The position numbers and the translations under genes are program-made. Below the pieces are notes generated by a model. It was given only the letters and a program-made list of their open reading frames with translations. It searched no databases and was not told the origin of the DNA. 64,000 nt of DNA, taken from Bacteroidota bacterium (GTDB lineage Bacteria; Bacteroidota; Bacteroidia; AKYH767-A; 2013-40CM-41-45). The stretch covers positions 203,521 through 267,520 of the forward strand of contig JADKJP010000004.1 in assembly GCA_016720935.1 (NCBI GenBank), in the 5' to 3' direction. Below, in pieces: positions 4,057-59,718 of the stretch. Numbering within the stretch: position 1 is the stretch's first letter; each line of letters opens with the position of its first letter.

Positions 4057-4098
4057 GGGGGGACGAGGGGCGAGGGACGGTGGGACGGTGGGGCGATG
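4057..4098 (+). repeat. G-rich GGGACGR heptamer array (G-quadruplex-prone)
   Basis: ggggggacgaggggcgagggacggtgggacggtggggcga. The same unit family recurs at 16459 and 51645. Confidence 0.8.
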
Positions 4099-4366
4099 TC
4101 ATTATGTCAAAAGTGGGTCTGCCTGTTTACTCGAGAGGATATTACCAAATTTCCAAAAAGGTCTCTGCGAGATGACAAAGCTTTTACTTATCAATATCGT
4201 CCAGATCCCGCCGAACAAGCCTTGGTTCATTTAACCAAATTGGATTGGCGGGATCTGGACGATAAAATCTCATGCTATGCGCTTGTCATCTCGAAGAGAA
4301 CTTTTAGGTCAGTTGAGACTAAATTGGTTTCTTATCTTAAAAACATTGGGGAAAAGGGGCGGGAGT

Positions 4367-4436
4367 TAGTGGAAGTGGAAGTGGAAGTGGAAGTGGAAGT
4401 TTAAAGTGGAAGTGGAAGTGGAAGTTTAAAGTGAAA
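4367..4436 (+). repeat. (GGAAGT)n hexamer array with higher-order structure [(GGAAGT)n TTTAAAGT]x2
   Basis: GGAAGT repeated 5 times, then TTTAAAGT, then GGAAGT 3 times, then TTTAAAGT. It produces the (VE)n tail of the spurious ORF 3928..4404. Confidence 0.85.
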
Positions 4437-4448
4437 GCAAAAATTGGG

Positions 4449-6038
4449 TTATTGATGGGATATAAAAATTTTGGAGGTCTGGGATTTTGAGTTCTTGAGG
4501 ATTTGCAGGAAATAGATACCGGAACTGATTCCCCGGAGATCGAGGGTGTTTTTTTGGGTGGAGGTGGACCAGTGATGGATCAGACGGCCGGTGGGATCAA
4601 TGAGTTGAATGGAAACCGGTTCAATTGGTGGACTGTTGAGTTCCACATTCAGAATTGATGAAACAGGATTGGGATAAACAACAGGTTTTTCTGAATCATC
4701 CTGAACCGTACCAATACCGACATTATTCAAACAAACATCCAGAATGAAAGCACTTGCCTGTGCAACAGAATCACAGGGCAGATGGGCGATGCTGTCATAA
4801 CTGACATCCGGATTGCATTGATAAAAACCTCCGATCAATGCACGATCAGAAACTCCAAAACACATCATTCCCGGAGCAAAACCGGCCAGACTGTCTTCGT
4901 AATCAAAAAATCTTGTAAGGTTACAACTGGTGTCCAGTGTTGCCAGAAATAATTTCGCGTTACTGTTTGCTGAATAGAATGAATGATTTCCAATCGACAT
5001 GGAATCGGAATATCTTCCCGACAAATAAATTCTATTTTCAAAAGTTTGAAGAATAGAAAAAGTTGGAGAAGGCGGTGTACCTATTTCCATTTCCAGAGAA
5101 AACAAAGAATCACCAAGCGGTGAATATTTTGTAATGAAATCGTAGTTCGCATCCAATGCATAAACATTCCCATGTTCATCGCCTGTTGCTTTGATCAAAG
5201 CAGTGGAAATTCCATTCTTCGCCCAGCGGATTGTACCACTCGAATCATAACAGGCGACAAAGGAAGAATTGTTCGCCGCGTTCAGCACGACACCATTTCC
5301 GAAATTCAATGTGACACTGTAATTTCCACTGATCGCGATACCATTTCCTCCTATTGCACTCAATCCATAAGGAAGCGAACCATTTGGTGTACTTGCCTGT
5401 TTTGCCCAGATCACATTTCCGGAAGGATCCATTTTCATGAGGAAGACGTCCATGGTCCCGGAGCAAATAAGAGTGTACGGTCCCAATCTGCAATATCCCC
5501 AAAAGCCACCCGTGACCAAAAGATTACCGGATTCATCAAGCTGCATCTCTCTTGTAATTTCTGATCCGTTACTTCCTCCACGAAATAACCATTGGCAGGC
5601 GCCGGTTGAAGCATTTAATTTCGCGACATAGACATCCCAGATCCCAAGAGTAGCGTAAGAAAAACCACCCAAAGAGATGCTGTCTATAAATGATCCGGAA
5701 ACATAGACACTGCCATCCTGCGAATAAAGTACACGACAGGTAATGTCATTCTGATCATGTGCATACACATGGATCCATTGCAAATGCTGAGCCCCATTGA
5801 GGCAAGCGATGTAACTGTTGTATTTTTGTCCGACGATACTTTGTCCGCCCAGATTTAAACTATCCGTAAAAAATCCGGCGATAAATACATTTCCACTATC
5901 ATCAGCAGCCAATCCGTTGATATAATGCTCACCGGGAAATCCCGCTCCCATGAACTGGTCACAGGAAATTTGAGCAAAAATATTTTTTGCAAAAAAGAAT
6001 AAAATCAGAAATACAAAAATGCGTCTAAGCATACTCAT
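4449..6038 (-). CDS. Secreted beta-propeller repeat protein with T9SS C-terminal sorting domain
   Basis: Signal peptide (MLRRIFVFLILFFFAKNIFAQ), repeated SGNVF/DxSGN motifs resembling SBBP repeats, C-terminal ~80-aa domain (VYPNPVSS...IYFLQI) typical of Por/T9SS CTD. Confidence 0.6.
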   Translation of the reverse strand: MSMLRRIFVFLILFFFAKNIFAQISCDQFMGAGFPGEHYINGLAADDSGNVFIAGFFTDSLNLGGQSIVGQKYNSYIACLNGAQHLQWIHVYAHDQNDITCRVLYSQDGSVYVSGSFIDSISLGGFSYATLGIWDVYVAKLNASTGACQWLFRGGSNGSEITREMQLDESGNLLVTGGFWGYCRLGPYTLICSGTMDVFLMKMDPSGNVIWAKQASTPNGSLPYGLSAIGGNGIAISGNYSVTLNFGNGVVLNAANNSSFVACYDSSGTIRWAKNGISTALIKATGDEHGNVYALDANYDFITKYSPLGDSLFSLEMEIGTPPSPTFSILQTFENRIYLSGRYSDSMSIGNHSFYSANSNAKLFLATLDTSCNLTRFFDYEDSLAGFAPGMMCFGVSDRALIGGFYQCNPDVSYDSIAHLPCDSVAQASAFILDVCLNNVGIGTVQDDSEKPVVYPNPVSSILNVELNSPPIEPVSIQLIDPTGRLIHHWSTSTQKNTLDLRGISSGIYFLQILKNSKSQTSKIFISHQ

Positions 6039-6162
6039 TGAATTTAAACAAGCTTAAAATTTACGAAATAAACTCTGCAAATTACCCAACTGTTCCTGCA
6101 CAGCGAATTTATACCAAATAAGTCCAATACTTTCCCCGCAACATCTTTTTTAGAAAACTGAA

Positions 6163-6837
6163 TTGATTTGGCCTACATTTGAACCCGCAATTCTGCCTGA
6201 ATTTATGCCGCTGACGTATCATCACAAGACCGACATTCTCCAACTGGGGATCTGGAAAAGTTCCGAACCCATGGAAGAGCTCGAGCAACTGGCAGGTCTG
6301 AGCGAATCAGAAATCATGCTGGTGCAAAGCTTTAAAAGCGAATTGAGAAAAAAAGAATTCCTGAGCGTACGCGCATTGCTGCACAACATGCATCCGGCTT
6401 CATCGCTGGTAATTCAATACGACGAGAATGGAAAACCCTATCTCGACAACATGCTTTCATTGTCCATATCTCACACGCAGGATTATGTCTCGGTTTTGTT
6501 CTCTCCCCTGCCCTATGTCGGCCTGGATCTGGAAACCATTCGTCCTCAGATTGAAAAGATCGCGCACAAATTTGTCAACGAAGAGGAGGCAAAATACATA
6601 GATGAAAAAAACAGGCGTCAGCACCTGCACATTCTCTGGGGCGCGAAAGAAGTTCTTTATAAAATTTACGGGAAAGGGAACGTTGATTTTCGCGGGCATT
6701 TGTCGGTAGCTCCATTCCAGTGCACCGATAAAGGAAGCACAGAAGCTACCATCAGGATGCCTGATTTTGAACGTACTTTCCTCGTTCATTTTGAAAAAAC
6801 AGAAAACCGCATGCTGGCCTATGCCACCGGTGAATGA
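6163..6837 (+). CDS. 4'-phosphopantetheinyl transferase family protein (Sfp-type)
   Basis: GLDLE...WGAKEVLYK motifs of the PPTase superfamily. True start may be the internal Met at ~6208. Confidence 0.55.
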   Translation: MIWPTFEPAILPEFMPLTYHHKTDILQLGIWKSSEPMEELEQLAGLSESEIMLVQSFKSELRKKEFLSVRALLHNMHPASSLVIQYDENGKPYLDNMLSLSISHTQDYVSVLFSPLPYVGLDLETIRPQIEKIAHKFVNEEEAKYIDEKNRRQHLHILWGAKEVLYKIYGKGNVDFRGHLSVAPFQCTDKGSTEATIRMPDFERTFLVHFEKTENRMLAYATGE

Positions 6838-6877
6838 TTCAAGGCTTCTTTGTATCTTCGTTTCGAACATTTAGCAC

Positions 6878-7627
6878 ATGAACCTGCTTTACAATCGTAT
6901 CCTCGCCGGCCGTGCGGGTCGCAAAAAATCTCTCGCGGTACTTGTTGATCCTGACAAGACCTCTCTTGTTGCCTGCGAAAAACTCGCTCACAACGCACTC
7001 GATGCCGGAGTTGATTATTTATTTGTCGGAAGCAGTATTCTCACCCACGGCGATCTTGATGCCTGTATTTCTGTACTGAAGCAAAACTGCAATATTCCTG
7101 TGATTCTTTTTCCGGGAAATACCATGCAAATTTCCGACAAAGCCGACGCGATTCTTTTTCTTTCTCTCATCAGTGGCAGAAACGCGGAAATGCTGATTGG
7201 CAGACACGTGATCTCCGCTCCCATGCTAAAAAAAAGCGGACTGGAAATTCTTCCTACCGGATATATGCTCATTGATAGCGGCGCTCCAACATCTGTGAGT
7301 TACATGAGCAACACCTTTCCGATTCCACATGACAAGGACGATATTGCTGCATGTACTGCCATGGCCGGAGAAATGCTGGGACTAAAAATGATATATATGG
7401 ATGCCGGTAGTGGCGCACGCTTTCCGGTAAGCAAATCCATGATCGCTTGTGTAAAAAACACGGTCAACACACCATTGATTGTAGGCGGAGGAATTCGTAC
7501 TCCGGAAAAAGCACTTGATCAATGTAATGCCGGAGCGGATATTGTGGTGATAGGAAATGCAATAGAAAAAGATCCCGCGCTGATTGGCGAAATTGCCACT
7601 GCAATGCACGTGGAGATCTTCAAATAA
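6878..7627 (+). CDS. Geranylgeranylglyceryl phosphate synthase family protein (PcrB/GGGPS-like)
   Basis: TIM-barrel PcrB-like sequence (LVDPDK..., GGGIRT...); length 249 aa matches the bacterial group of GGGPS homologues. Confidence 0.65.
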   Translation: MNLLYNRILAGRAGRKKSLAVLVDPDKTSLVACEKLAHNALDAGVDYLFVGSSILTHGDLDACISVLKQNCNIPVILFPGNTMQISDKADAILFLSLISGRNAEMLIGRHVISAPMLKKSGLEILPTGYMLIDSGAPTSVSYMSNTFPIPHDKDDIAACTAMAGEMLGLKMIYMDAGSGARFPVSKSMIACVKNTVNTPLIVGGGIRTPEKALDQCNAGADIVVIGNAIEKDPALIGEIATAMHVEIFK

Positions 7628-7651
7628 TCGTATTTTTTTTCCGAAAATTCT

Positions 7652-8575: not shown

Positions 8576-8818
8576 AGTTAAAACCCCCGATTTAAAAAAT
8601 TATTCGGCTTTGAATAATACCCCCCCCCTTGGTATAATACAAATGTATCGAACAATATTACTTAAATACAAATACTTCAGCAATTTCCTGACACAGCTAT
8701 GACAAAAAGGGGCCAATAACTTAAAATTTCTTCATTATAAACCATCCCCCTCCTTGTGACCACCTTAAATAAATCCAATTTACCATAAAATGTCCTTTGG
8801 ATTCGGATATTTGCTCCC

Positions 8819-9427
8819 GTGGACCAGTACCAAATCTTAATTTTCGGCCAGCAGATCAATATTCTGGAACTCTTGGCCATGCTCAGCGGGATCATTGCTG
8901 TTTGGCTAACCGTGAAACATTCTGTCTGGTGCTTTCCGATTGGAATCGTCAATGTCCTACTGTATGCCTGGCTCTTCTACTCACCCTCTGTACGTCTTTA
9001 TGCCGATACATTACTGCAATGTATTTATGTAATTCTACTTATCTATGGATGGATCCGGTGGAACAGTAAAAAAGAGGAGAACCCTGATTTTGTGCCGGAG
9101 AACATGAGTCCAGATCAATGGAAAAAAAGCCTGCTTGTGTTTCTTGCAGGAAGCTGCCTCTTTGGTTACCTTTTTCAAAATTTCACGGACGCTTCTCTAC
9201 CCTGGCTGGATTCAACGCTCACAACGGCAAGTCTTATCGCTCAATGGATGGTAGCGAAAAAGAAAATTGAAAACTGGATTATCTGGATTATCGCGAACAG
9301 TGTTTACATTCCGCTCTTCTTTTTCAAACATCTCCCACTCACCTCGCTCCTGTATTTTCTCTTTCTCATTATGGCGATTTCAGGTTATCTTCAATGGAAA
9401 AAGTTAATGCCTGCAAATCAGTCATGA
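8819..9427 (+). CDS. pnuC: PnuC-family nicotinamide riboside (or thiamine-type) transporter
   Basis: WLTVKHSVWCFPIGIVNVLLYAWLFY core motif of PnuC; multi-TM. Confidence 0.8.
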   Translation: MDQYQILIFGQQINILELLAMLSGIIAVWLTVKHSVWCFPIGIVNVLLYAWLFYSPSVRLYADTLLQCIYVILLIYGWIRWNSKKEENPDFVPENMSPDQWKKSLLVFLAGSCLFGYLFQNFTDASLPWLDSTLTTASLIAQWMVAKKKIENWIIWIIANSVYIPLFFFKHLPLTSLLYFLFLIMAISGYLQWKKLMPANQS

Positions 9428-10469: not shown

Positions 10470-10575
10470 AGTAAGCCGCTAAGGTTGCACAAGTTAAAAA
10501 ATTACCCGTTCATGAAAAATTACTTATGAAGTATTTTGCAAAAAAAATTCAGTCAAGGAATTTTTGATACTTTTG

Positions 10576-10662
10576 TACCATCAAACTGGGGTGCTCCTGA
10601 TCTACGGGGCTGAGATTATACCCATCGAACCTGTTCAGGGTAATGCCTGCGAAGGGAACGAG
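10576..10662 (+). promoter_or_regulatory. TPP (thiamine pyrophosphate) riboswitch, THI-box
   Basis: ACUGGGGUGCUCCUGAUCUACGGGGCUGAGAUUAUACCCAUCGAACCUGUUCAGGGUAAUGCCUGCGAAGGGAAC matches the THI-box consensus (CUGGGGUGC, GCUGAGA, ACCC, GAACCUG, UAAUGCC.GCG.AGGGAA). It is preceded by a TActTTTG -7 promoter motif and is 65 nt upstream of the TonB-dependent receptor ATG. Confidence 0.85.
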
Positions 10663-10727
10663 GTAAACAAATTATGGCGCGTTCACACCCCATGGTGCGT
10701 GCATTGTTCATCCTTAAATAATAAATC

Positions 10728-13159: not shown

Positions 13160-13208
13160 TATGAGTTATGAGTTGAGAGTTAGAATTATGAATTATGAAT
13201 TATGAGTG
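13160..13208 (+). repeat. (ATGAGTT)n heptamer array
   Basis: atgagtt atgagtt gagagtt agaatt atgaatt atgaatt atgagtg. Starts 9 nt after the receptor stop codon. The same array occurs at 25587. Confidence 0.85.
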
Positions 13209-13217
13209 CCATAATTT

Positions 13218-13313
13218 CTAAGCACTAACCACTAACCTCTAAGCACTAAGCACCAACCACCAAGCACCAAGCACTAACCTCTAAGCACTAAGCACCAACC
13301 ACTAAGCACTAAT
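13218..13313 (+). repeat. (CTAAGCA/CTAACCA/CCAAGCA)n heptamer array, ~13.7 units, perfectly 7-nt periodic
   Basis: ctaagca ctaacca ctaacct ctaagca ctaagca ccaacca ccaagca ccaagca ctaacct ctaagca ctaagca ccaacca ctaagca ctaa. Confidence 0.9.
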
Positions 13314-16458: not shown

Positions 16459-16680
16459 AGGGGGCGAGGGACGGGTGACGGGGGATGAACGATTAGGCAG
16501 GAGAGAGAAAATATAACAATGAAATGGCCCATTCAAAAATAAACAATACTCAAGAAGTTTTCTCGAAACCTAATAACCTAATAACTCAATAACTCAATAA
16601 CTTAGTAACTTAATAACTCAATAACAAATCGTCCCCCGCCCCTTCTTCATGAACAACCCGGAACTCAGAACTCGAAACCC
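16459..16680 (+). repeat. Composite repeat element: G-rich GGGACGR block, (YYAATAAC)x7 octamer array, inverted C-rich block, (GAACTCR) heptamers
   Basis: 16461 ggggcgagggacg is inverted-complementary (12 of 13) to 16629 cgtcccccgcccc. The octamer array ctaataac x2, tcaataac x2, ttagtaac, ttaataac, tcaataac spans 16569-16626. gaactcagaactcgaaac (16661-78) is the reverse orientation of the GTTCYGA family. Confidence 0.8.
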
Positions 16681-16736: not shown

Positions 16737-18257
16737 ATGCCGCTGATCGGAGCTCTTATTAAACAGGGATTGAAACTGGGTACACGCGTCAAACTGCGTG
16801 ATTATACTCCTATTCAACACCAGCGTAAGGAATTACGTAAACTCATGCGAAAAGCGGAGCATACCGCTTTTGGCAATCATTACGGTTTTAGCAAGATGCT
16901 TGACTCCCGGAATTTTGTCAGGGCATTCCAGAATGACGTTCCGGTTTTCAATTACAACTCTATTTTTCAGAACTGGTGGCATCGTTGTCTGGCCGAAGAA
17001 GAAAATGTCTGCTGGCCGGGACATGTGAATTATTTCGCCCTGAGTTCAGGCACTTCTGAATCCGCAAGCAAACACATTCCTGTCACCAACGACATGGTGA
17101 AATCCTTGCGCAAAGCAAGCATTCGTCAGATTATCACACTCAGCAAATACGATTTACCGGCTTCTTTTTTTGAAAAAGGAATTCTCTGGCTTGGCGGATC
17201 AACACAACTCAACAGACACGGTGGATATTACGAAGGTGATGTGAGCGGAATTTCCGCCCGACGTGTTCCGATCTGGTTTCAGCAATATTACAAACCCGGA
17301 AAAAAAATTTCCAAGGAGAAAGACTGGAATATCAAACTCGAAGAAATTACCAAGCAGGCCGACAAATGGGATATCGGAATTATTACCGGTGTTCCTTCAT
17401 GGGTTCAGCTGCTGATGGAAAAAGTAATCGAACGTTACAAGTTAAAAAGCATCCACGATATTTGGCCCAATCTCCAGGTAGTCGCTCATGGTGGTGTTTC
17501 TTTCGAGCCATACCGCAGAAGCTTTGAGCGTTTCTTTTCCAAACCTGTACACTTCATCGAAATGTATCCTGCTTCGGAAGGCTTCATCGCGTTCCAGGCA
17601 GAACCGGATGTACGTTACATGAAACTCATCCTGAACAACGGACTGTTTTATGAATTCGTTCCTTTCAACGATGAGAACTTCGACGCGAATGGAGAACTAA
17701 AACAAAACCCTCAGGCATTACTGGTGAATGAAGTAAAAGAAGGTGTTGATTACGCCATTCTAATCAGCACCTGCGCCGGAGCATGGAGATATATGATTGG
17801 TGATGTTGTTCGATTTGTCAACAAAGAGAACTGCGAAATCGTCATTAGCGGAAGAACAAAACATTTCCTCAGTCTGGTTGGCGAACATCTCAGTGTCGAT
17901 AACATGAACAAAGCTGTCGAATATGTCGCGGAACAACTCAATGTTGAAATCCCCGAATTCACTGTCGCCGGAATTCCTTACGAAGGATCTTTTGCCCATC
18001 ACTGGTTTCTTGGTGTGAATGGAAATCTGGACAGAGCCCAGGCCAAACTTTTACTCGATAAAAAACTAAAAGAACTGAACGACGATTACGCCGTTGAACG
18101 TGTCTCTGCATTGAAAGAAGTCATTATCGAAACACTTCCTGCAATTAAGTTCTACAACTACATGAGCAACAACGGCAGGCTCGGCGGACAAAACAAATTC
18201 CCCCGCGTACTCAAAGCTTCGCAGTTGGAGGAGTGGAAGCAATATATTGCTGGCTAG
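16737..18257 (+). CDS. GH3-family (auxin-responsive GH3-like) acyl-adenylate-forming enzyme homologue
   Basis: Length and motifs (YALSSGTSE, FIEMYPASEGF) typical of bacterial GH3 auxin-responsive promoter family proteins. Confidence 0.7.
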   Translation: MPLIGALIKQGLKLGTRVKLRDYTPIQHQRKELRKLMRKAEHTAFGNHYGFSKMLDSRNFVRAFQNDVPVFNYNSIFQNWWHRCLAEEENVCWPGHVNYFALSSGTSESASKHIPVTNDMVKSLRKASIRQIITLSKYDLPASFFEKGILWLGGSTQLNRHGGYYEGDVSGISARRVPIWFQQYYKPGKKISKEKDWNIKLEEITKQADKWDIGIITGVPSWVQLLMEKVIERYKLKSIHDIWPNLQVVAHGGVSFEPYRRSFERFFSKPVHFIEMYPASEGFIAFQAEPDVRYMKLILNNGLFYEFVPFNDENFDANGELKQNPQALLVNEVKEGVDYAILISTCAGAWRYMIGDVVRFVNKENCEIVISGRTKHFLSLVGEHLSVDNMNKAVEYVAEQLNVEIPEFTVAGIPYEGSFAHHWFLGVNGNLDRAQAKLLLDKKLKELNDDYAVERVSALKEVIIETLPAIKFYNYMSNNGRLGGQNKFPRVLKASQLEEWKQYIAG

Positions 18258-18292
18258 TTCCGGGTTCCGGGTTCGAAGTTCAAAGTTTGAGC
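18258..18292 (+). repeat. (GTTCYRR)n heptamer array (GTTCCGG x2, GTTCGAA, GTTCAAA, GTTTGAG)
   Basis: Begins at the first nucleotide after the GH3 stop codon and is nearly identical to the array at 59591-59615. Its first 12 nt (gggttccgggtt) form an inverted repeat with 18343-18354 (aacccggaaccc). Confidence 0.85.
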
Positions 18293-18307
18293 AGATCTCA
18301 ATTCTCC

Positions 18308-18360
18308 CAACCACTAAGCACTAACCACTAACCACTAACCACAAACCCGGAACCCAAAAA
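18308..18360 (+). repeat. (CCACTAA/CTAAGCA)n CA-rich heptamer array ending at the lysE-family ATG
   Basis: ccaacca ctaagca ctaacca ctaacca ctaacca caaaccc ggaaccc aaaaa|ATG. Confidence 0.85.
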
Positions 18361-20865: not shown

Positions 20866-20920
20866 TGAGTGGAAGAGTAAGTGTAAGTGCAAGTGCAAGT
20901 CTCAAGTTTGGGTGTTTAAA
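20866..20920 (+). repeat. (AAGTGCA/GTGGAAG)-type heptamer array
   Basis: gatgagt ggaagag taagtgt aagtgca agtgcaa gtctcaa gtttggg tgtttaa. Confidence 0.7.
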
Positions 20921-20947: not shown

Positions 20948-20990
20948 TACCAAAAACCAACAACCAAAAACTAATAACCAATAAAAAAAG
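20948..20990 (+). repeat. (ACCAAMA)n heptamer array abutting the tRNA-Val(GAC) 3' end
   Basis: accaaaa accaaca accaaaa actaata accaata aaaaaag, immediately followed by the tRNA at 20991. Confidence 0.8.
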
Positions 20991-22653: not shown

Positions 22654-22710
22654 CTTGGTACCTGGCACCTTGTACCATGTAATTAGTACAAGGTACCAGG
22701 ATTATTGTTA
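22654..22710 (+). repeat. Palindromic (YNGGTAC)n heptamer array forming a 15-bp-stem hairpin
   Basis: ttggtac ctggcac cttgtac catgtaa ttagtac aaggtac cagg; cctggcaccttgtac is inverted with gtacaaggtaccagg (one mismatch). Confidence 0.75.
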
Positions 22711-22750
22711 GGAAAACTTTAAAATTATTTTCGATATTTGATATCTCAAT

Positions 22751-22816
22751 CTAAGCACCAAGCACCAAGCACCAAGCATCAACACCTAACACCTAACAAC
22801 TAACAACTAACAACCA
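22751..22816 (+). repeat. (CTAAGCA/CCAAGCA/CTAACAA)n heptamer array ending 6 nt before the coaD ATG
   Basis: ctaagca ccaagca ccaagca ccaagca tcaacac ctaacac ctaacaa ctaacaa ctaacaa ccactcc. Confidence 0.9.
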
Positions 22817-24946: not shown

Positions 24947-25588
24947 ATGCCAGTAAAAGACGAAACGGCAGGGAATATTGCCGAATACCTCCTCCAGATC
25001 AAAGCGATAAAATTACAACCCGACAAGCCTTTTACCTGGGCTTCAGGATGGAAATCACCGATTTACTGTGACAACAGAATAAGCTTATCCTATCCTAAAG
25101 TCAGGACATACATCCGCCAGGCACTTGTTAAAGCAATCGAAGAAAAGTTCGGTAAGCCGGACTGTATCGCAGGTGTTGCCACAGCAGCCATTGCTCAGGG
25201 AGCATTGGTAGCGGAAGCCATGGGATTGCCTTTCGTGTATGTCAGATCCTCCCCCAAGGATCATGGTCGGGAAAATCTGATCGAAGGCGAAATCAGCAAG
25301 GGCCAGTCAGTAGTTGTCATTGAAGACCTCATTTCTACAGGCAAATCATCTCTCAAAGCTGTCGAAGCACTCCGCGAAGCAGGTTGCAAAGTGAAAGGTA
25401 TGATTTCTGTTTTCACCTACGGCTTCCCGCTTGCAGACGCGAATTTCGAAAAAGAAAACTGTCAGAATATTTCTCTCTGCGATTACGAAACCCTTCTCGA
25501 AAAAGCACTTGAAGCAAAATACATCTCCAAAAACGATCTCGACACTCTCCGTAAATGGCGAGAGGCTCCGGAAGCATGGGGGATTTAG
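24947..25588 (+). CDS. pyrE: Orotate phosphoribosyltransferase
   Basis: PRPP-binding VVVIEDLISTGKS motif. The ORF-track start at 24881 adds a 22-aa Cys-rich extension; the internal ATG at 24947 is preferred. Confidence 0.85.
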   Translation: MPVKDETAGNIAEYLLQIKAIKLQPDKPFTWASGWKSPIYCDNRISLSYPKVRTYIRQALVKAIEEKFGKPDCIAGVATAAIAQGALVAEAMGLPFVYVRSSPKDHGRENLIEGEISKGQSVVVIEDLISTGKSSLKAVEALREAGCKVKGMISVFTYGFPLADANFEKENCQNISLCDYETLLEKALEAKYISKNDLDTLRKWREAPEAWGI

Positions 25589-25632
25589 TGAGTTATGAGT
25601 TTTGAATTATGAATTATGAGTTATGAGTTATT
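25587..25632 (+). repeat. (ATGAGTT/ATGAATT)n heptamer array overlapping the pyrE stop codon
   Basis: gtgagtt atgagtt ttgaatt atgaatt atgagtt atgagtt att. Confidence 0.85.
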
Positions 25633-25793
25633 TTGCTTCTGGTTCACCGTTATTTAATTTTAATTGAATAAAATAGCTAACCTAAAAAACCTAGAGCACT
25701 CAGAAATTACCCTTCACTAAACACCAGAGTCCAGACTATTACTTTCGCAAATCACAGACACCACACACGCACTTCACAAACACTCCCTCAACA

Positions 25794-42686: not shown

Positions 42687-43196
42687 TTATTTTCGTGTAT
42701 ATGAAATATGCCATAACGATTTCCAGTTGAGTCGGTCAGTAGAGCTCTGCCAGTCCCACTCAAAACTGTCTTTTTTTATCGAAAAGAATATCATACGTCT
42801 GTAATTCTTCTGTCCGTTTTTTGTCACAGTTTCATCTCCTTCAAAAATCACCGTATCGCCTTCTTTTCTCCCGGTGAACACGAGATAAGCTCCCGCATTA
42901 TCCACCCAGGTTTGTCTCCATTTCGATGTTGTCGAATCAAACATGCTCCAGCTTTTACCAATAAAGGTTCCATCACTGTAGTGAAAATTTTCTTCAATCA
43001 CTTTGTTGTCAAGAATCCGGGAAATATGATTTGTCGCCTGAACGGAATCACCCCAGACACAATTCCAGTCACCCAGCCAGAAATCCATGAGGTCTTTTTG
43101 CATGGCTGGTATTTCAGCTTTTGTCATGATGCAAAGAAGCAGGGAGAGGAGGGTGAGTGTGAGTGTGAGTGTGAGTGTGCGTGTGAGTGTGGGCAT
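42687..43196 (-). CDS. Hypothetical protein; N-terminus encoded by a hexanucleotide repeat gives (TL)n
   Basis: M1 reading gives MPTLTRTLTLTLTLTLLSLLLCIMTKAEI.... The alternative start at MTKAEI would lack a signal peptide. The start lies 6 nt downstream of the stop of the beta-helix gene. Confidence 0.5.
   Translation of the reverse strand: MPTLTRTLTLTLTLTLLSLLLCIMTKAEIPAMQKDLMDFWLGDWNCVWGDSVQATNHISRILDNKVIEENFHYSDGTFIGKSWSMFDSTTSKWRQTWVDNAGAYLVFTGRKEGDTVIFEGDETVTKNGQKNYRRMIFFSIKKDSFEWDWQSSTDRLNWKSLWHISYTRK
43150..43193. repeat. (GTGAGT)n hexanucleotide microsatellite (ACACTC on the coding strand)
   Basis: ggtgagtgtgagtgtgagtgtgagtgtgcgtgtgagtgtggg: six-plus units, in frame, at the 5' end of the 42687..43196 gene. 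Confidence 0.85.
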
Positions 43197-46174: not shown

Positions 46175-46249
46175 GGGAGCTTAGCTCAGCTGGTTCAGAG
46201 CATCTGCCTTACAAGCAGAGGGTCACAGGTTCGAACCCTGTAGCTCCCA
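46175..46249 (+). tRNA. tRNA-Val (anticodon UAC)
   Basis: GGGAGCTTAGCTCAGCTGGTTCAGAGCATCTGCCTTACAAGCAGAGGGTCACAGGTTCGAACCCTGTAGCTCCCA forms a canonical cloverleaf with anticodon loop CTTACAA. A rho-independent terminator hairpin AAAGCCCACC-ATAA-GGTGGGTTTT follows. Confidence 0.9.
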
Positions 46250-46520
46250 CTTCAAACAAAGCCCACCATAAGGTGGGTTTTGTCGTTTTAAGTAAATTCA
46301 TTTTGTTCACCATCATAAAAGCAACAACAGAGCATCCCGGTTTATAACCGGGAGGGTCACAGGTTCGAACCCTGTAGCTCCCACTTCAAACAAAGCCCAC
46401 CACTTGGTGGGTTTTGTCGTTTTAAGTAAATTCATTTTGTTCACCATCATAAAAGCAACAACAGAGCATCCCGGTTTATAACCGGGAGGGTCACAGGTTC
46501 GAACCCTGTAGCTCCCACTT
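46250..46520 (+). repeat. Tandem ~120-bp units, each carrying a tRNA-Val 3'-half fragment (altered anticodon arm) plus terminator hairpin plus spacer
   Basis: Units at about 46329-46448 and 46464-46520 repeat AGAGCATCCCGGTTTATAACCGGGAGGGTCACAGGTTCGAACCCTGTAGCTCCCAC and the terminator. A 14-bp 5' fragment (gggagcttagctca) lies at 46141-46154. Confidence 0.85.
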
Positions 46521-46637
46521 CAAAACAAAACATTTATCCTTGTAAAAATACACCGCTCATATTATCTTTTAGACCCTGATCAATTTAATTGTGTCCAGAC
46601 GAAAAATAAGGGACAAAACCGAAAAGAGTAGCAGCCC

Positions 46638-51644: not shown

Positions 51645-51695
51645 GGGGACGAGGGACGGTGAAAAGGGGACGAGGGACGGGGGGCGAGGGACGTT
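51645..51695 (+). repeat. G-rich (GGGACGR)n array inside the exbB-exbD intercistronic spacer
   Basis: gggacgagggacggtgaaaaggggacgagggacggggggcgagggacg. Confidence 0.85.
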
Positions 51696-51729: not shown

Positions 51730-51765
51730 GCACCAACCACTAAGCACCAACCACCAGGCACTAGT
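51730..51765 (+). repeat. (CCAACCA/CTAAGCA)-type heptamer array abutting the exbB stop codon
   Basis: caccaaccactaagcaccaaccaccaggcactag; the CA-rich strand is antisense to the exb operon here. Confidence 0.8.
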
Positions 51766-52483
51766 TCTTCACCGGCTCCTCAAGCAGGTCGATAAACTGA
51801 ACCGCGTTAATTTCCATTTTATTGATTACCCTGTCGATCATGTGAACGAGATAGTGATAAGCTGCGTAAGCGATCATACCGACAAGCAGACCTGCCGCGC
51901 TGGAAATCATTTTCACATAGAGACCACCTGAAATTGTATTGATCTCAAGAGAATTCTGAAGAGCGATCTGATAGAAGATTTTGATTACACCGAAGATGGT
52001 ACCAAGGAATCCGAACATCGGAGCGATACCGGCGATAGTTCCGAGGATGTTGAGGTTTTTCTCCATCATGTAGATCTGGAGTTTCCCGACATTCTCTATC
52101 GCGCCTTCAATTTCCTTTACAGGTTTTCCGAGACGCATCAGTCCTTTTTCGATCATACGTGCAACCGGACTGCTGGTGTTTTTGCAGAGCGCTTTTGCAG
52201 CGTCGATATTTCCACTGTGGACGTAATCGCGAATCTGGTTCATGAAATTCATATCAATTTTTGAGAAACGCTGAATAGTAAACAGCCTTTCAAAAAAGAT
52301 GTAGAATGCCATCACTGAAAGAATCGCGATTGGAACGAGGATGGGCCCGCCTTTTACAGCCATATCCCAGAGAGAAATGGATTGCTCAACAGGAGGAGTA
52401 ACAGCTGTCGTTGCAGCCTGAGCAAGCGAGTCCGAGGCTGCGCCAAGGTTTTGAGTGATCTGCAGGATGAGTCCGTAGGTCAT
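51761..52483 (-). CDS. exbB: MotA/TolQ/ExbB proton-channel protein
   Basis: Three TMs, conserved MotA_ExbB C-terminal region (PMFGFLGTIFGVI). Confidence 0.8.
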   Translation of the reverse strand: MTYGLILQITQNLGAASDSLAQAATTAVTPPVEQSISLWDMAVKGGPILVPIAILSVMAFYIFFERLFTIQRFSKIDMNFMNQIRDYVHSGNIDAAKALCKNTSSPVARMIEKGLMRLGKPVKEIEGAIENVGKLQIYMMEKNLNILGTIAGIAPMFGFLGTIFGVIKIFYQIALQNSLEINTISGGLYVKMISSAAGLLVGMIAYAAYHYLVHMIDRVINKMEINAVQFIDLLEEPVKN

Positions 52484-55105: not shown

Positions 55106-55169
55106 GGAGCGGATTGCTCCACTCCTTAGATGATCATTAGATCAAAAATTATCAGATTGGTTGATGAGA

Positions 55170-57467
55170 TTACTCAACAATCATTCTTGCGATACTTTCA
55201 TTTTCTCCGGTTTGCATTTTCACGAAATAAATTCCTGCACTGAGGCCGGATACATCCTGTGAAATACGATGGTTGCCTGAATCAAACTTTTGATTTTCAA
55301 AAATGCGGCTCACGAGTTGTCCGGTAGATGAATAAATTTTCATGGATACAGTCGTTGCTTTGGGCAAATGGAAAGAAATCAATGACGGATGATTAGCACC
55401 GGCAGGACTTGCTGTCAAACCAAGATTATTAACATTAACAGATCCGACCTGAGTAGTACCATTTGCAACAACTACCACAGTACCAAAATAAGGGATACGA
55501 TTGTACGCAGTAACGGTAACATCAAGTGTATCTCCGATGGTCAATCCGGGAATGGTGAGATAGGCAGAACCACTCAGCGCATATCCTGTACTTACGATCT
55601 GATTATGGTGACTGAGACAAACCAATGCCTGATCAACATTGCATTGCACCACCCAAGTTGAGGTATTTTCATCAATTGTTGCATCGTGGGCTACCGGAAT
55701 CGGTTCAGGAGTTGCAGTCCGCACTGTGATACTTGGATCTCCAAAGCATGTCCATGTATCTGTCATTTCCACTCCTGCAGCTCCATACTGATCATTCATG
55801 TGAAGACAGCCATTGACAGAAATTCCACCAAAAGTATGCTTGATATTTCCAGGATAAGTTTCAACAAGAATGTCCACCATTTCATCCTGTCCATCCATTG
55901 GAGGATCCCAACTCTGGTTGATTGTTGACATCAAGGTAGCGATCGCTCCAATCGGAGCACCAGAAATTGTAGTGGTTCTCATCAGTGCTTCCGCAAGACA
56001 ACTTCCATTGTTAAAATCACCATTCACACAGGCAACTGACCAGATGAATGGAAGCATGTTTTCGTTTGTGAGATTCTGTACATCACCTGAACTAAAGCTG
56101 GTTGTTCCACAGCTGTTCTGACTTCCATGTCCTGTATACGTAAGTACACTGCGACCAGAATTGAAAGCATCTGCAAGATCCTGTGGACCCGGATCACCGG
56201 AAACATCCATTCCACCCTGACTGCCGTCGTAAATCTCATCAACATCGGTATAGGTGTAGCCCAGATATTTCAGACGAATATTTCTTTCATGTTCGAAATC
56301 AATTTCGTTGTCATCACCAGGTCCTTGGTCTGACCCTACACAAATTCCTTTGTGATACCATTGCCCCATTGGGTCGGGATGCATTTCATAACTGATGGAA
56401 CGCTGAACTTGCGTTTCCAATTCAGCAGGAGTATTCGCGGAAAAACGACCGACAATTACTTCAGCATAGGAATCGTTACCAAGGATATCACCATAAGATG
56501 GATCTGAATCTCCGTTTCCTGTAGGATACGGAGGAATCTGCGGACCATCACCAACCAGCAGAACAAACGTCAATCCATCTGTATTGTATTTATCTGTTAT
56601 AAATGTCTTGATCGCTGTGGGACTTACGCCAATGGTACTTACATCTACCATTTCTGTTTTTTGCCCCATTCTGTTTTTCCAGTCAACAAAAGGCTGCATA
56701 GTAGCCATCAGGGAAGGATCTGAAATTACCAGCATACTACCTGTTTCAGCAGTTTGCACGTACTGAGTCTGGTTGTAATTGATAAAACGATTGGAATAAA
56801 TCGGATTAAAAATATCGTTAGGTTGTGGTTGACGGGAACGTGAGAATGCATTCAGAGAAACAGAAGAAGTTACCGGACTTGTTTTGACAGTAAGCTGATC
56901 ATACACACGTAATACACGAGTGACAGGATTGTATTGAAAAGGATACACGACAATGGTTTGTCCACGGAAATCACGAAGAATATATGGATCTCTTAGTTCA
57001 GCGATTGTACCCGGATAAAAGCTATTGCTTGAATATGCCGGTCCGTATGTGTATGGAATTGCAGACGGATCCTGATTTCTTTTCAGGTTTCCTTTGGAAG
57101 GGAGCAAATGAATATTGTTGTATTCATGATAGGAAGAAGCAATCACCTGCACATCCATTGTTGCAGCATCCGGAATGATAACCGATACCGCCATTTTCAA
57201 AACATCAGGAGCTCCTGCAATCAATAAATGACTTGCATTTTCCGCATCAATCTGATGCGAAATACCCTGCGCAGTGGAAACTGTTTGCAGGTTAAACCCG
57301 GGAACATGAAAAGCGATTGTAGTCTCATCACCGGATTGTTGCACAAGACTTGCGCTGAGTTTCTGAGATGTAGAATGATCTGCCGAAATCCATTGTTTCG
57401 GATTTGATGAAAAAGCAATAGCTGAAATCATCAGACAGATTCCTGAAAGGAGTATTCTTTTTTTCAT
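55170..57467 (-). CDS. C25-family (gingipain-like) cysteine peptidase with T9SS C-terminal domain
   Basis: Signal peptide, ~400-aa caspase-fold C25 core with conserved His/Cys context (GHGS..., SVACVNGDF), Ig-like domain, C-terminal GIYFVKMQTG...RMIVE Por CTD. Confidence 0.65.
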   Translation of the reverse strand: MKKRILLSGICLMISAIAFSSNPKQWISADHSTSQKLSASLVQQSGDETTIAFHVPGFNLQTVSTAQGISHQIDAENASHLLIAGAPDVLKMAVSVIIPDAATMDVQVIASSYHEYNNIHLLPSKGNLKRNQDPSAIPYTYGPAYSSNSFYPGTIAELRDPYILRDFRGQTIVVYPFQYNPVTRVLRVYDQLTVKTSPVTSSVSLNAFSRSRQPQPNDIFNPIYSNRFINYNQTQYVQTAETGSMLVISDPSLMATMQPFVDWKNRMGQKTEMVDVSTIGVSPTAIKTFITDKYNTDGLTFVLLVGDGPQIPPYPTGNGDSDPSYGDILGNDSYAEVIVGRFSANTPAELETQVQRSISYEMHPDPMGQWYHKGICVGSDQGPGDDNEIDFEHERNIRLKYLGYTYTDVDEIYDGSQGGMDVSGDPGPQDLADAFNSGRSVLTYTGHGSQNSCGTTSFSSGDVQNLTNENMLPFIWSVACVNGDFNNGSCLAEALMRTTTISGAPIGAIATLMSTINQSWDPPMDGQDEMVDILVETYPGNIKHTFGGISVNGCLHMNDQYGAAGVEMTDTWTCFGDPSITVRTATPEPIPVAHDATIDENTSTWVVQCNVDQALVCLSHHNQIVSTGYALSGSAYLTIPGLTIGDTLDVTVTAYNRIPYFGTVVVVANGTTQVGSVNVNNLGLTASPAGANHPSLISFHLPKATTVSMKIYSSTGQLVSRIFENQKFDSGNHRISQDVSGLSAGIYFVKMQTGENESIARMIVE

Positions 57468-57588
57468 ACGATTTATTTCTACCGGCCATGAAGCACGGAA
57501 AAGCCGGGATTAAGATACATAATTACTGTATATATTACACATTGTCAGAGAAGTGTCAGGCATTACAGTGAGGAATCGTAGAATTCTT

Positions 57589-57921
57589 TCAGGAATTAAT
57601 CCAATTTTGGATTTTGCTTGTGACGTTCAGAATCCCGTTTTGATTTTTTTCAAGATTTTTCTGAAATGCGGCGGTCAGATCTACGCCGGTTTGATTGGCC
57701 AGACAGATCAACACAAACAATACATCAGCAAGTTCATCGCCCAGATCTTTTCCAAGATCCGATTCTTTTGAAGATTGCTCACCGTATTTCCTGGCAATAA
57801 TTCGGGCTACCTCTCCTACTTCTTCGGTAAGCATAGCCATATTGGTGAGCTCATTAAAATAACGAACGCCATGAGTTTTGATCCACTGGTCTACTTGGGC
57901 TTGTGCTTCGGTGAGGTCCAT
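57589..57921 (-). CDS. MazG-like nucleotide pyrophosphohydrolase (single-domain)
   Basis: EExGExxE motif region (LTEEVGEVARIIARKYGEQS..., DELADVLFVLICLAN). Confidence 0.7.
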   Translation of the reverse strand: MDLTEAQAQVDQWIKTHGVRYFNELTNMAMLTEEVGEVARIIARKYGEQSSKESDLGKDLGDELADVLFVLICLANQTGVDLTAAFQKNLEKNQNGILNVTSKIQNWINS

Positions 57922-57976
57922 GTTAGTTGTTAGTTTTTAGTGGTTGGTGCTTAGTGGTTGGTGCTTGGTGCTTAGA
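57922..57976 (-). repeat. (CTAAGCA/CCAACCA/CTAACAA)n heptamer array (sense to mazG) ending at its ATG
   Basis: On the minus strand: tctaagca ccaagca ccaacca ctaagca ccaacca ctaaaaa ctaacaa ctaac|ATG. Confidence 0.85.
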
Positions 57977-57991
57977 ATGCATTGTAAACTT

Positions 57992-58020
57992 GCTGACTCA
58001 AGACTCCGAACTCCAGACTT
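57992..58020 (-). repeat. (GAGTTCN/GAGTCTT) heptamer block, GTTC-family module upstream of the CA-rich module
   Basis: On the minus strand: aagtctg gagttcg gagtctt gagtca. Confidence 0.65.
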
Positions 58021-58058
58021 TTTAACCCAAGCTCCTGTCATTCGATTCCAAATTTCCG

Positions 58059-58511
58059 TTACTCTTTATTCTTTGAGTCTATCCAAATCGTAACCGGGCC
58101 GTCGTTGATGAGAGCGACTTTCATATCGGCACCGAACTCTCCGGAGTAGACATTTCTTCCGCTTTCCTGTGCAAGTCGTGATAGAAATTTTTCATACAAA
58201 GGAATTGCCTGTTCAGGTCGGGCTGCGCGGATGAATGACGGGCGATTCCCTTTTTTTGTGGATGCATGTAGTGTGAACTGACTCACCACCAGAAAATCTC
58301 CCTGAACATCTGAAACAGAGAGATTCATTTGTCCGTTTTCGTCACCGAACACACGAAGCTTTGATATTTTACCACATAGCCACTCTATGTCTTCGTCCGT
58401 GTCAGCTTCTTCAATTCCAAGAAGAATAAGAAAACCATTTGCTATCGCAGCTTTTTCATTTCCTTCTATATTGACAGAAGCCTGTGATACGCGTTGAATA
58501 AGGACCCTCAT
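58059..58511 (-). CDS. dtd: D-aminoacyl-tRNA deacylase
   Basis: 150 aa, MRVLIQRV... N-terminus and SQFTL/GPVT motifs of DTD. Confidence 0.9.
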   Translation of the reverse strand: MRVLIQRVSQASVNIEGNEKAAIANGFLILLGIEEADTDEDIEWLCGKISKLRVFGDENGQMNLSVSDVQGDFLVVSQFTLHASTKKGNRPSFIRAARPEQAIPLYEKFLSRLAQESGRNVYSGEFGADMKVALINDGPVTIWIDSKNKE

Positions 58512-58552
58512 GAGATTCTTGATAAATTCTGAGAAAGAAACATGAAATATAT

Positions 58553-59473
58553 TTATCTGAAAATATCCTGGTTACTCAGAATACTGAGATAACTATCGTA
58601 CCGGCTGTATGCGATTTCGCCCCGTTCCACTGCCGGTTTAACGGCACAATCCTTTTCAGTGGTGTGCAAACAGTTATTGAATTTACAACCTTTCCCAACA
58701 GCAAAAATATCAGGGAAGAAGTGTGACACTTCATACTTGTCAAAATCAATAGTACCGAATTCACGAATTCCGGGAGTATCGATTAGGAAACCTCCTTCAG
58801 GCAGCGCATGCATCTCTGCAAATGTGGTTGTATGCGTTCCTTTCATGTGCTGAGATGAAAGCGTAGAGGTTTTCAAACCGAGTCCGGGAATAAGCGCGTT
58901 AATCAAGGAGGACTTCCCTACTCCGCTATGTCCGGAAAACAGATTCACTTTCCCCTTGAGTTCGTCCTTCAAAGCATGCAAACCAAAACCCGACAATCCA
59001 GAAACTGCAAGTACTTTATAACCAATTCCCTCGTAGAGATTTTTCAGCTCATTCACAAAATCCCAGACATCATCATCGTAAATGTCTGCTTTGTTCCAGA
59101 GTATTCCGGCCGGAACACTATGAGCCTCCGCTGTTGCCAGAAACCTGTCAATAAAACCAAGTGACGTTTTCGGAAGAACAGGAGTCGCCACAACCCAGGC
59201 GCGATCTACGTTGGCAGCAATGATCTGAACCTGTTTGGATAGTTTGACAGACTTCCGGATGATGTAATTCTTACGATCGAAAACACGAATAATATGGCCG
59301 ACTTCATGCGCTGAATCCCATTCCACCTCAACCTTGTCGCCAACTGTTACCGGGTTAGTTGCCTCAAAATCCTTTAAACGTAAATTTCCACGAATCCTGC
59401 AGGTCAGATTCTTACCATCCTCCAGTCTTACCGTGTATAAAGAACCCGTTGATTTTATCACTATCCCATGCAT
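58553..59473 (-). CDS. rsgA: Ribosome small-subunit biogenesis GTPase RsgA
   Basis: OB-fold N-terminus (MHGIVIKSTGSLYTVR), circularly permuted GTPase motifs (NKADI...SGHSGVGKSS), C-terminal zinc-finger CxxC...C. The ORF-track start at 59596 is an artefact of read-through into the GTTCYGA repeat. Confidence 0.85.
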   Translation of the reverse strand: MHGIVIKSTGSLYTVRLEDGKNLTCRIRGNLRLKDFEATNPVTVGDKVEVEWDSAHEVGHIIRVFDRKNYIIRKSVKLSKQVQIIAANVDRAWVVATPVLPKTSLGFIDRFLATAEAHSVPAGILWNKADIYDDDVWDFVNELKNLYEGIGYKVLAVSGLSGFGLHALKDELKGKVNLFSGHSGVGKSSLINALIPGLGLKTSTLSSQHMKGTHTTTFAEMHALPEGGFLIDTPGIREFGTIDFDKYEVSHFFPDIFAVGKGCKFNNCLHTTEKDCAVKPAVERGEIAYSRYDSYLSILSNQDIFR

Positions 59474-59540
59474 GGCACGAAAGTAAAAAAAGCAAGTGGA
59501 GAATTCACCTGAATTTCGTGAGAAATAACTTAGATTTGCG

Positions 59541-59636
59541 CTTCTCGGGTTCTGAGTTCTGAGTTCTGAGTTCCGAGTTCTGAGTTCCGAGTTCAAGGTT
59601 CGAAGTTCAATGTTTGAATTGTTCGAGGATCGAGGT
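59541..59636 (+). repeat. (GTTCTGA/GTTCCGA/GTTCGAA/GTTCAAT)n heptamer array, ~13 units
   Basis: ttctcgg gttctga gttctga gttctga gttccga gttctga gttccga gttcaag gttcgaa gttcaat gtttgaa ...; the 3' part is nearly identical to 18272-18292. Confidence 0.9.
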
Positions 59637-59667
59637 TAATGAATGCTAGAAGTATCAGGTAAAAATT

Positions 59668-59718
59668 CTAAGCACTAAGCACTAACCACCAAGCACTAAC
59701 CACCAAGCACCAAGCACC
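59668..59718 (+). repeat. (CTAAGCA/CTAACCA/CCAAGCA)n heptamer array ending at the gldA-like ATG
   Basis: ctaagca ctaagca ctaacca ccaagca ctaacca ccaagca ccaagca ccaaaaa aa|ATG. Confidence 0.9.

Follow-up and report, generated by a model that had tools for sequence, protein, structure and literature searches.

Heptanucleotide tandem arrays in the intergenic DNA of a Bacteroidota bacterium and their polarity toward neighbouring genes

Results

Tandem arrays of 7-nt units lie between the genes of the window

We analysed a 64,000-nucleotide (nt) stretch of a Bacteroidota genome (GenBank assembly GCA_016720935.1, contig JADKJP010000004.1, positions 203,521 to 267,520 of the forward strand), referred to here as the window, in which degenerate tandem arrays of 7-nt units lie between the genes. 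The placement in Bacteroidota agrees with type IX secretion system (T9SS) C-terminal sorting domains, a C25 peptidase, a gene named gldA by NCBI and promoters of the TAnnTTTG type, and identical proteins are present in wastewater and activated-sludge metagenomes as well as in Bacteroidetes/Bacteroidota metagenome-assembled genomes (MAGs) at NCBI. The TAnnTTTG motif is enriched in the spacers, with 20 of 52 matches falling in 13% of the sequence, where it typically precedes starts by 12-80 nt, and it stands immediately ahead of both riboswitches of the window. A crude gene map of the window gives 59 open reading frames (ORFs) and 87% coding sequence, leaving 8.3 kb of intergenic DNA in 47 regions.

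The intergenic DNA has a clear 7-nt period. The fraction of identical bases at lags of 7, 14 and 21 nt is 0.311, 0.306 and 0.304, compared with 0.269 in 300 dinucleotide-preserving shuffles (z = 8.6, 7.7 and 7.1, respectively), and no comparable peak at lag 7 appears in the coding DNA of the window. Tandem Repeats Finder (TRF) detects period-7 arrays at 4060, 13160, 13218, 18257, 18309, 20949, 22753, 22781, 25589, 51646, 51730, 57921/57940, 59549 and 59670, together with three arrays of 6-mers (4368, 20868 and 43149) and one of 8-mers (16567), the copy number per array ranging from 2.6 to 13.6. Together, the arrays sum to about 960 nt, or about 11.5% of the intergenic DNA, and occupy 12 of the 47 intergenic regions; every period-7 array lies between ORFs or overlaps just their first or last codons. 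A few units recur within the 64 kb, namely CYAASCA at six sites, the GTTCYGA/ATGAGTT superfamily at six and GGGACGR at three. An original prediction, made from the sequence alone, had proposed 7-nt periodicity in at least a dozen intergenic regions, to be judged against shuffled intergenic sequence, and within the window this agrees with the counts and the excess found here, although the arrays do not dominate the intergenic DNA as it had stated. Furthermore, a tandem YNGGTAC repeat that it placed at 22654 is really a palindromic hairpin (-22.4 kcal/mol), and the weak heptamer phasing that it read in the spacer at 994-1314 is not supported (z = 1.8 at lag 7 and z = 3.2 at lag 8). Two arrays, (GAGTGT)7 at 43149 and the C/A-rich tract at 25753-25790, were absent from it.

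The arrays are non-coding and are not CRISPR arrays, as had also been proposed, since they lie between ORFs and consist of contiguous units of 6-8 nt without spacers, whereas in a CRISPR unique spacers part repeats that are themselves ~23-50 nt long. They likewise differ from repetitive extragenic palindromic sequences and bacterial interspersed mosaic elements (REP/BIME) and from miniature inverted-repeat transposable elements (MITE), in which palindromic units of some 20-40 nt or more are spread as entire copies, often bounded by terminal inverted repeats: in the window 7-nt units recur, with no conserved whole element, and both length and composition differ from site to site. No Rfam family is matched by the arrays. 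An assembly artefact can be set aside because the arrays are shared by independent assemblies: more than 20 independent contigs from metagenomes contain them, as do NCBI MAG contigs that are 587 and 728 kb long.

Arrays change by whole units among strains and turn over between species

In strains with an identical GldA protein, the rsgA/gldA spacer measures 277, 284, 286 (the window), 312, 319 or 326 nt, lengths that step by 7 nt apart from a 2-nt indel in the window. The gldA DNA of these strains differs from that of the window at 0-6 of 921 positions, and the 67 nt of the spacer that lie outside the arrays are identical except for a single substitution in one strain, while ~185 nt of array region hold 6-16 substitutions and 2-44 gap positions. 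GTTCTGA, GTTCCGA and GTTATGA units swap within one array across the strain variants. The unit families had been read correctly from the sequence in the original prediction, except that GTTCYGA and ATGAGTT form one superfamily, because their units interconvert within one array in strain variants.

Other arrays behave in the same manner. At 13217, the window and strain L137 have 13.6 CYAASCA units, five other strains have 9.6, and a further two carry CTAACAA units; the 8-mer array at 16567 has exactly one additional 8-nt unit in strains L002 and L004; and AGC and ACC versions of the unit interchange among strains in the array at 18307. Copy-number variation among strains, which the original prediction had raised as a check, is thus found both in 7-nt steps at rsgA/gldA and as a four-unit difference at 13217. 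Higher-order periods of 14, 21 and 42 nt are present, and their frequency falls from 14 to 21 to 28 nt, as expected for slippage of several units at once. A special role for the 21-nt super-period (two helical turns, or three times seven) was considered and rejected, since period 14 is commoner than 21, and 21 than 28.

The nearest relative at species level, whose GldA is 82% identical, retains both the rsgA-proximal spacer and the TAGATTTG box, which in the window lies at 59531-59538, ~9 nt before the first array, and GGGACGG x4 replaces the GTTCYGA and CYAASCA arrays of the window. The position is therefore reused and its sequence turned over, because the relative keeps the spacer and the box but carries an unrelated array. 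Together, these comparisons show that the birth, growth and turnover of the arrays are driven by slippage. The proposal of an active generating or homogenising mechanism holds insofar as slippage by unit steps and rapid turnover are concerned, but no dedicated machinery is indicated. The head-to-tail units, their length in excess of chance, their confinement to non-coding DNA, as for a unit that is no multiple of 3, and their whole-unit polymorphism among strains are those of heptanucleotide long simple-sequence repeats (LSSRs), bacterial microsatellites of a class whose units span 1-11 nt. The arrays of the window are a new member of this documented and poorly understood kind.

The GTTCYGA arrays at 59547-59614 and 18257-18291 are homogeneous on their gene-proximal side and degenerate toward the middle of the spacer (GTTCAAG, GTTCGAA, GTTCAAT, GTTTGAA), a gradient that hints at polar growth.

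Similar arrays occur in many phyla

The original prediction had suggested looking for the units in other genomes, and a scan for (CYAASCA)x4 in one genome per species indeed returned at least 120 loci; all cross-phylum figures given below are for the loci among the matches listed (844 kb). These span Chloroflexota, Cyanobacteria, Planctomycetota, Acidobacteriota, Bacteroidota, Victivallales, Firmicutes and Proteobacteria. In the 844 kb, 386 arrays have period 7, compared with 50 of period 6, 40 of period 8 and 107 of period 9, and there are 180 distinct canonical units among the period-7 arrays. Period 7 is also the commonest in an unselected set, comprising 480 kb around gldA homologues of 57-82% identity in Bacteroidota relatives, with 64 arrays against 16 of period 6 and 32 of period 8.

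The C/A-rich strand reads toward the nearest gene

The arrays follow a polarity rule, in which the C/A-rich strand reads toward the nearest gene, at a start or a stop alike. In the window, 18-19 of 20 arrays conform when classified by hand from the sequence, the exception being (GGAAGT)n at 4368, and an automated count of the period-7 arrays gives 9:1 in favour. G/T-rich arrays lie at or just past stops at 13160, 18257, 25587 and 57995 (minus strand), and C/A-rich arrays end 0-8 nt before an ATG, in sense orientation, at 18307, 22753, 25753, 57921 (minus strand) and 59668. The original prediction was right in noting a strand bias, but the bias is a polarity set by the nearest gene and not by the chromosome strand.

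Across phyla, arrays within 80 nt of a gene have more C than G toward the gene by 85:24 where the gene end is a start and by 72:26 where it is a stop. The polarity persists in solo arrays (34:11 start-facing, 30:12 stop-facing), in loci of low GC content whose ORFs reach 180 aa or more, for which strand calls are reliable (15:5 at starts, 25:5 at stops), and in arrays of units other than the one searched, and it is present in each major phylum. Since the C-rich strand reads toward either gene end, pairs of arrays are ordered G-rich then C-rich on both strands. Indeed, where two neighbouring arrays have opposite skews, the G-rich one precedes the C-rich one (G->C) in 61 cases and follows it in five, a count that needs no gene calls. 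The order is 25:3 in co-directional spacers, 8:0 in convergent spacers and 16:0 in divergent spacers, and it holds in five phyla (Chloroflexota, Cyanobacteria, Bacteroidota, Planctomycetota and Acidobacteriota). Furthermore, 35 of 64 G->C pairs (61 from other genomes and three from the window) are inverted copies of one unit at no less than 6/7 identity, compared with 18% of random pairs and none of the five C->G pairs. Pairs in the unselected Bacteroidota set are ordered G->C 5:0.

Several simple causes of the arrays or of their polarity were considered and rejected. The polarity is not inherited from background composition, as sequence flanking the arrays is almost free of skew. A stop codon within the unit would close all three frames, 7 being coprime to 3, but the enrichment of stops is weak once the searched family is left out (z = 1.6-2.3), so that closure of all frames is not a main driver. 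Loading of the termination factor Rho at Rho-utilization (rut) sites is an improbable general cause, given the equal presence of the polarity in Cyanobacteria, which are not known to have Rho.

Candidate -7 boxes lie upstream of some C-rich arrays

With the box ~9 nt before the first array, a gldA leader of ~180 nt would consist of the two arrays. Boxes with one mismatch to the -7 consensus, as read from the sequence, precede the C-rich arrays at 4096, 18307, 22753 and 51693, and among Bacteroidota loci with an exact TAnnTTTG box, the box lies upstream of C-rich start-facing arrays in 7:0 cases. The arrays lie neither within ORFs nor between -33 and -7 elements.

The arrays resemble known heptanucleotide repeats and differ in their units

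Heptanucleotide repeats have been known since 1990, as the short tandemly repeated repetitive (STRR) sequences of heterocystous cyanobacteria, and since 2007 from an LSSR survey. The units of STRR1-3 are CCCCAGT, TTGGTCA and CAACAGT, and none of the three occurs in tandem within the window. The window arrays, which draw on a small genome-specific vocabulary, share with STRR a period of 7, an intergenic location and several unit families per genome, so that the likeness to STRR drawn in the original prediction holds for the broad class; the family is different, and the host belongs to Bacteroidota and not to the heterocystous cyanobacteria.

Heptanucleotide repeats are described as the most abundant long simple-sequence repeat class in many bacteria, and the sole proposal that we found for the preference for 7 nt is a slippage bias arising from the polymerase footprint (Mrazek 2007, as cited in PMC4679880 and PMC4692102). 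Like the LSSRs of that survey, the window arrays are intergenic tandem 7-nt units of excess length, phylogenetically scattered and variable in length by slippage; as the survey is cited in these two papers, it does not single out Bacteroidota and describes neither multi-family vocabularies nor gene-relative polarity.

Arrays of TAACTGA and other heptamers just upstream of start codons have been described in Beggiatoaceae, Cyanobacteria and five Bacteroidetes, namely Flexibacter litoralis, Gramella forsetii, Aequorivita, Elizabethkingia and Paludibacter (MacGregor 2015, PMC4679880), so that an equivalent in Bacteroidota, of which the original prediction named none, does exist. The TAACTGA repeats resemble the window arrays in their forward orientation a few nt upstream of starts, seen here in the five C/A-rich arrays that end before an ATG, in the Shine-Dalgarno-poor genomes that carry them and in 7-nt indels between strains, and, much like the mixed units of the window, they occur alongside further heptamers in some Bacteroidetes, for instance Gramella forsetii (PMC4679880). 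However, the unit is another one (TAACTGA occurs five times singly and never in tandem within the window), the window arrays are equally frequent after stops, and the paper describes neither a polarity rule nor G->C ordering (PMC4679880). The GGGAATC heptamers of Xanthomonas and the GGGGAYT heptamers of Nostoc form G-quadruplexes (G4s) in vitro, and each Xanthomonas genome holds 70-75 'convergent' inverted GGGAATC pairs (Rehm et al. 2015, PMC4692102). G4 motifs built of 7-nt units are likewise present in the window, as GGGACGR arrays at 4057, 16460 and 51645, and the 'convergent' Xanthomonas pairs have the G->C order described above. The unit is again another one, no tandem GGGAATC being present within the window; three of about 20 window arrays are G4-capable, and the window pairs are mostly heterologous. 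Our literature search found no description of CTAACCA/CCAAGCA tandems.

Discussion

Orientation of slippage-grown arrays

With moderate confidence, we read the arrays as slippage-grown heptanucleotide LSSRs whose orientation is filtered at the transcript level. Through slipped-strand mispairing or unequal exchange, arrays grow, shrink and swap variants by whole units or by blocks of two to six units; they persist only outside coding sequence and turn over completely between related species. The strand orientation that survives at a given place would presumably reflect the transcript. Where RNA enters a gene, the C/A-rich, G-poor version would be kept as an unstructured 5' leader, in which low G content means no ATG, GTG or TTG codons, no Shine-Dalgarno-like motifs and no stable folding, and such a leader would suit a Bacteroidota lineage that does not use Shine-Dalgarno pairing. 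Where RNA exits a gene, the G/T-rich version would form a trailer right after the stop. The arrays would thus be tolerated, length-tunable leader and trailer spacers and not sequence-specific sites.

Several observations weigh against this reading. The polarity is equally strong at stops and in convergent spacers, which selection on leaders does not predict and which may point to a mechanism independent of gene orientation. The limited unit vocabulary is unexpected from neutral slippage on random seeds. Most array-bearing leaders have no exact -7 box, a transcribed leader being inferred from the sequence at one locus and suggested by the one-mismatch boxes at four. Avoidance of start codons is so collinear with plain G/C skew, with only 3-4 discordant arrays, that the two could not be told apart. 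Finally, single arrays in the unselected Bacteroidota set show the polarity weakly (17:12).

The equal polarity at stops and in convergent spacers keeps a directional process at the DNA level in play, although we think it unlikely. Such a process, blind to gene orientation, would by its nature run the G-rich strand 5' to 3' inward from either edge of the spacer, for instance by fold-back priming of self-pairing G/T-rich nascent 3' ends, or when 3' ends at breaks are extended by added repeats and then rejoined. The order of the pairs, which is independent of gene calls and common to all spacer types and five phyla, the excess of inverted copies among G->C pairs, the 'convergent' pairs of Xanthomonas (Rehm 2015, PMC4692102) and the equal polarity of starts and stops are all consistent with it. 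However, solo arrays follow the same rule, so that pairing is unnecessary; the window pairs are heterologous and form no hairpins, apart from that at 18257-18355; the 180 different units argue against a fixed template; no candidate enzyme is linked to the arrays; and selection on both flanks could yield the same order. In the literature searched, we did not find the polarity stated as a general rule, the 'convergent' pairs having been noted in Xanthomonas only (Rehm 2015, PMC4692102). Because the polarity spans five phyla and ignores gene orientation, we tentatively raise the possibility that, as a general rule, it reflects an unrecognised directional process, whether repeat genesis at 3' ends or a universal constraint at the transcript level.

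It is improbable that the arrays are multivalent sites for a sequence-specific RNA- or DNA-binding protein (S1-, Csp- or CsrA-like) that would define a post-transcriptional regulon. The small genome-specific vocabulary and the six arrays that end, in sense orientation, either right at a start codon or 6-8 nt ahead of it would fit such sites, and a role of this kind has been proposed for TAACTGA repeats in the same arrangement (MacGregor 2015, PMC4679880). Yet copy number and unit sequence vary freely among strains with identical flanking genes, the orthologous site of the 82% relative is taken by an unrelated unit, and the downstream genes are unrelated housekeeping genes, which together make the regulon unlikely; the same units also occur past stops, between convergent genes and beside a tRNA gene.

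Phase-variable contingency loci, as in Haemophilus, Neisseria and Moraxella (uspA2, AGAT), are built of 1-5-nt units within or beside genes for surface or virulence functions, and their effect, whether on/off or graded, has been demonstrated. They share with the window arrays a copy-number polymorphism caused by slippage, which sometimes lies between the promoter and the start codon, and in the window the 7-nt-step length polymorphism between the -7 box and the gldA start, with gliding and T9SS-related surface functions nearby, might be taken as phase or rheostat variation, in which copy-number change in a promoter or leader tunes adjacent genes. We regard this as very doubtful, since the units are of 7 nt, many arrays follow stops or occupy convergent spacers, the neighbouring genes are mostly of the housekeeping type (rsgA, dtd, mazG, adenosylhomocysteinase and an isocitrate/isopropylmalate dehydrogenase-family gene), a change of 7 nt in a leader of ~180 nt is no obvious switch, and the arrays are not located between -33 and -7 elements.

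Least probable is a structural role, with G4s or hairpins acting as terminators, RNA stabilisers or barriers to replication or transcription: nine of ten window array regions fold no better than shuffles (z = -0.3 to +1.3), by which hairpins were rejected as the general explanation of the window array pairs, most units (CYAASCA, GTTCYGA, ATGAGTT, ACCAAMA) are capable of neither G4s nor self-pairing, and no U-tracts follow the pairs, which outweighs the many inverted array pairs in other phyla, the in vitro G4s of GGGAATC and GGGGAYT repeats (PMC4692102) and the one folding exception, the pair at 18257-18355, whose 12-bp stem (z = -3.7) is formed by GGGUUCCGGGUU/AACCCGGAACCC around 18262-18355. 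With a G4 motif defined as at least four tracts of at least three G, 1-7 nt apart, the GGGACGR arrays at 4057, 16460 and 51666 are the sole canonical G4 motifs in the 64 kb, so that a G4 role is possible for these three arrays alone.

If the arrays are indeed slippage-grown LSSRs whose orientation is filtered at the transcript level, they would serve as long 5' leaders, and in this phylum translation initiation relies on leaders that are A/C-rich and free of structure. The window provides a well-resolved Bacteroidota example with a natural strain series, in which hypervariability in 7-nt steps lies beside near-invariant flanks and an orthologous site has turned over completely. Every model of how the arrays arise or what they do must account for a simple, testable regularity, namely their orientation toward the nearest gene and the G->C order of their pairs, and a directional process, if true, could explain why 7-nt repeats are the dominant long bacterial microsatellite. 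The feature itself is moderately interesting, and its cross-phylum polarity is the part worth following.

Array positions and other features of the window

The arrays and their associated elements are collected in Table 1.

Table 1. Tandem arrays and associated elements, by position in the window
Element	Position	Strand	Context
GGGACGR x5, candidate G4 motif	4057..4096	+	upstream of adenosylhomocysteinase (minus strand, annotated start 3910); sense = YCGTCCC
(GGAAGT)n 6-mer, 25-nt super-period	4368..4437	+	11 nt past stop of T9SS-tail protein gene (minus strand); one clear polarity exception
ATGAGTT/ATGAATT x7	13160..13207	+	9 nt past TonB-dependent receptor stop (plus strand); sense strand G/T-rich
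CYAASCA x13.6, 21- and 42-nt higher-order periods	13217..13312	+	abuts leucine-rich repeat (LRR) gene (minus strand), provides its TAG stop
GGGRCGR, candidate G4 motif	16460..16484	+	after terminator of isocitrate/isopropylmalate dehydrogenase-family gene
8-mer YYAATAAC x7.4	16567..16625	+	
CGTCCCCCGCCCC	16630-16642		inverted partner of GGGRCGR array 16460..16484
CCCGGAACTCAGAACTCGAAACCC, reverse complement of GTTCYGA, C-rich	16657..16680	+	56 nt upstream of GH3-family gene ATG (16737)
GTTCCGG/GTTCGAA/GTTCAAA x5	18257..18291	+	begins within GH3 TAG stop; G-rich arm of inverted pair with 18330-18355
CYAASCA x6 grading into CCCGGAACCC	18307..18355	+	ends 6 nt before LysE ATG (18361)
(AGTGNA)n 6-mer, G-rich	20868..20900	+	pirin / tRNA-Val(GAC) spacer
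ACCAAMA x4.7, C/A-rich	20949..20981	+	reads toward tRNA-Val(GAC) 3' end
-7-like box GATATTTG	22733-22740		ahead of the 22753 array
CCAAGCA x5, then CTAACAC, then CTAACAA x3	22753..22814	+	ends 8 nt before ATG 22823 (cytidylyltransferase-like gene)
ATGAGTT x6	25587..25631	+	begins at phosphoribosyltransferase gene TAG stop; sense strand G/T-rich
Degenerate C/A-rich, G-poor repeat	25753..25790	+	directly upstream of ATG 25794
(GAGTGT)7 6-mer	43149..43191	+	flanked by two minus-strand genes; sense = ACACTC
GGGACGR x7, candidate G4 motif	51645..51693	+	31 nt upstream of minus-strand gene starting 51614; sense C-rich
CYAASCA x4.5	51730..51761	+	abuts stop of minus-strand gene 51761-52483
CTAACAA x3 + CYAASCA x5	57921..57973	-	directly upstream of MazG-family gene start (57921)
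GAGTTCG-type (GTTCYGA-family) units	57995..58019	-	40 nt past D-Tyr-tRNA deacylase gene stop
TAGATTTG, exact match to Bacteroidetes -7 consensus TAnnTTTG	59531..59538	+	array begins ~9 nt downstream
GTTCYGA x10	59547..59614	+	rsgA / gldA divergent spacer; length polymorphic among strains, 7-nt steps
CYAASCA x7.5	59668..59720	+	followed by A8, then gldA ATG (59726)

The arrays have practical effects on their surroundings, in that they break short-read assemblies, supply stop codons to neighbours and inflate ORF calls. Nine contigs begin or end within heptamer arrays, so that these repeats commonly break such assemblies. Arrays provide or overlap the stop codons of neighbours at 13309-13312, 18255-18257 and 25586-25588; at the LRR gene, a TGCTTAG unit gives the last two codons and the TAG stop, and strains with CTAACAA units have an altered final residue. 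Longest-ORF calls are extended into arrays at rsgA, which is 306 aa (start 59473) and not 347 (ORF 58553-59596), and at ORF 2588-3991, where the adenosylhomocysteinase is annotated as 440 aa (start 3910) and not 467. A 158-aa ORF at 3928-4404, which crosses two arrays and a long hairpin, is probably spurious.

That hairpin, a composite structure of ~150 nt at 4135-4305 between the GGGACGR and (GGAAGT)n arrays, has a minimum free energy of -83 kcal/mol (z = -6.9), with a perfect inner stem of 18 bp (4195-4212 / 4247-4264) and an outer stem of 33 nt; it matches no Rfam family and has no second copy within the window. Two riboswitches are each directly preceded by an exact TACTTTTG -7 box, a thiamine pyrophosphate (TPP) riboswitch at 10577-10674, ahead of a TonB-dependent receptor (box at 10568), and a SAM-II (long-loop) riboswitch at 61863-61942, ahead of metK (box at 61854). 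At 46175-46529, tRNA-Val(TAC) is followed by 2.3 copies of a 134-nt unit (97% identity) with two small hairpins per copy, and each copy terminates in the last ~35 nt of the tRNA (GAGGGTCACAGGTTCGAACCCTGTAGCTCCCA). The 134-nt units resemble a stack of partial 3' ends of the tRNA, which may have stayed behind at an integration (att) site.

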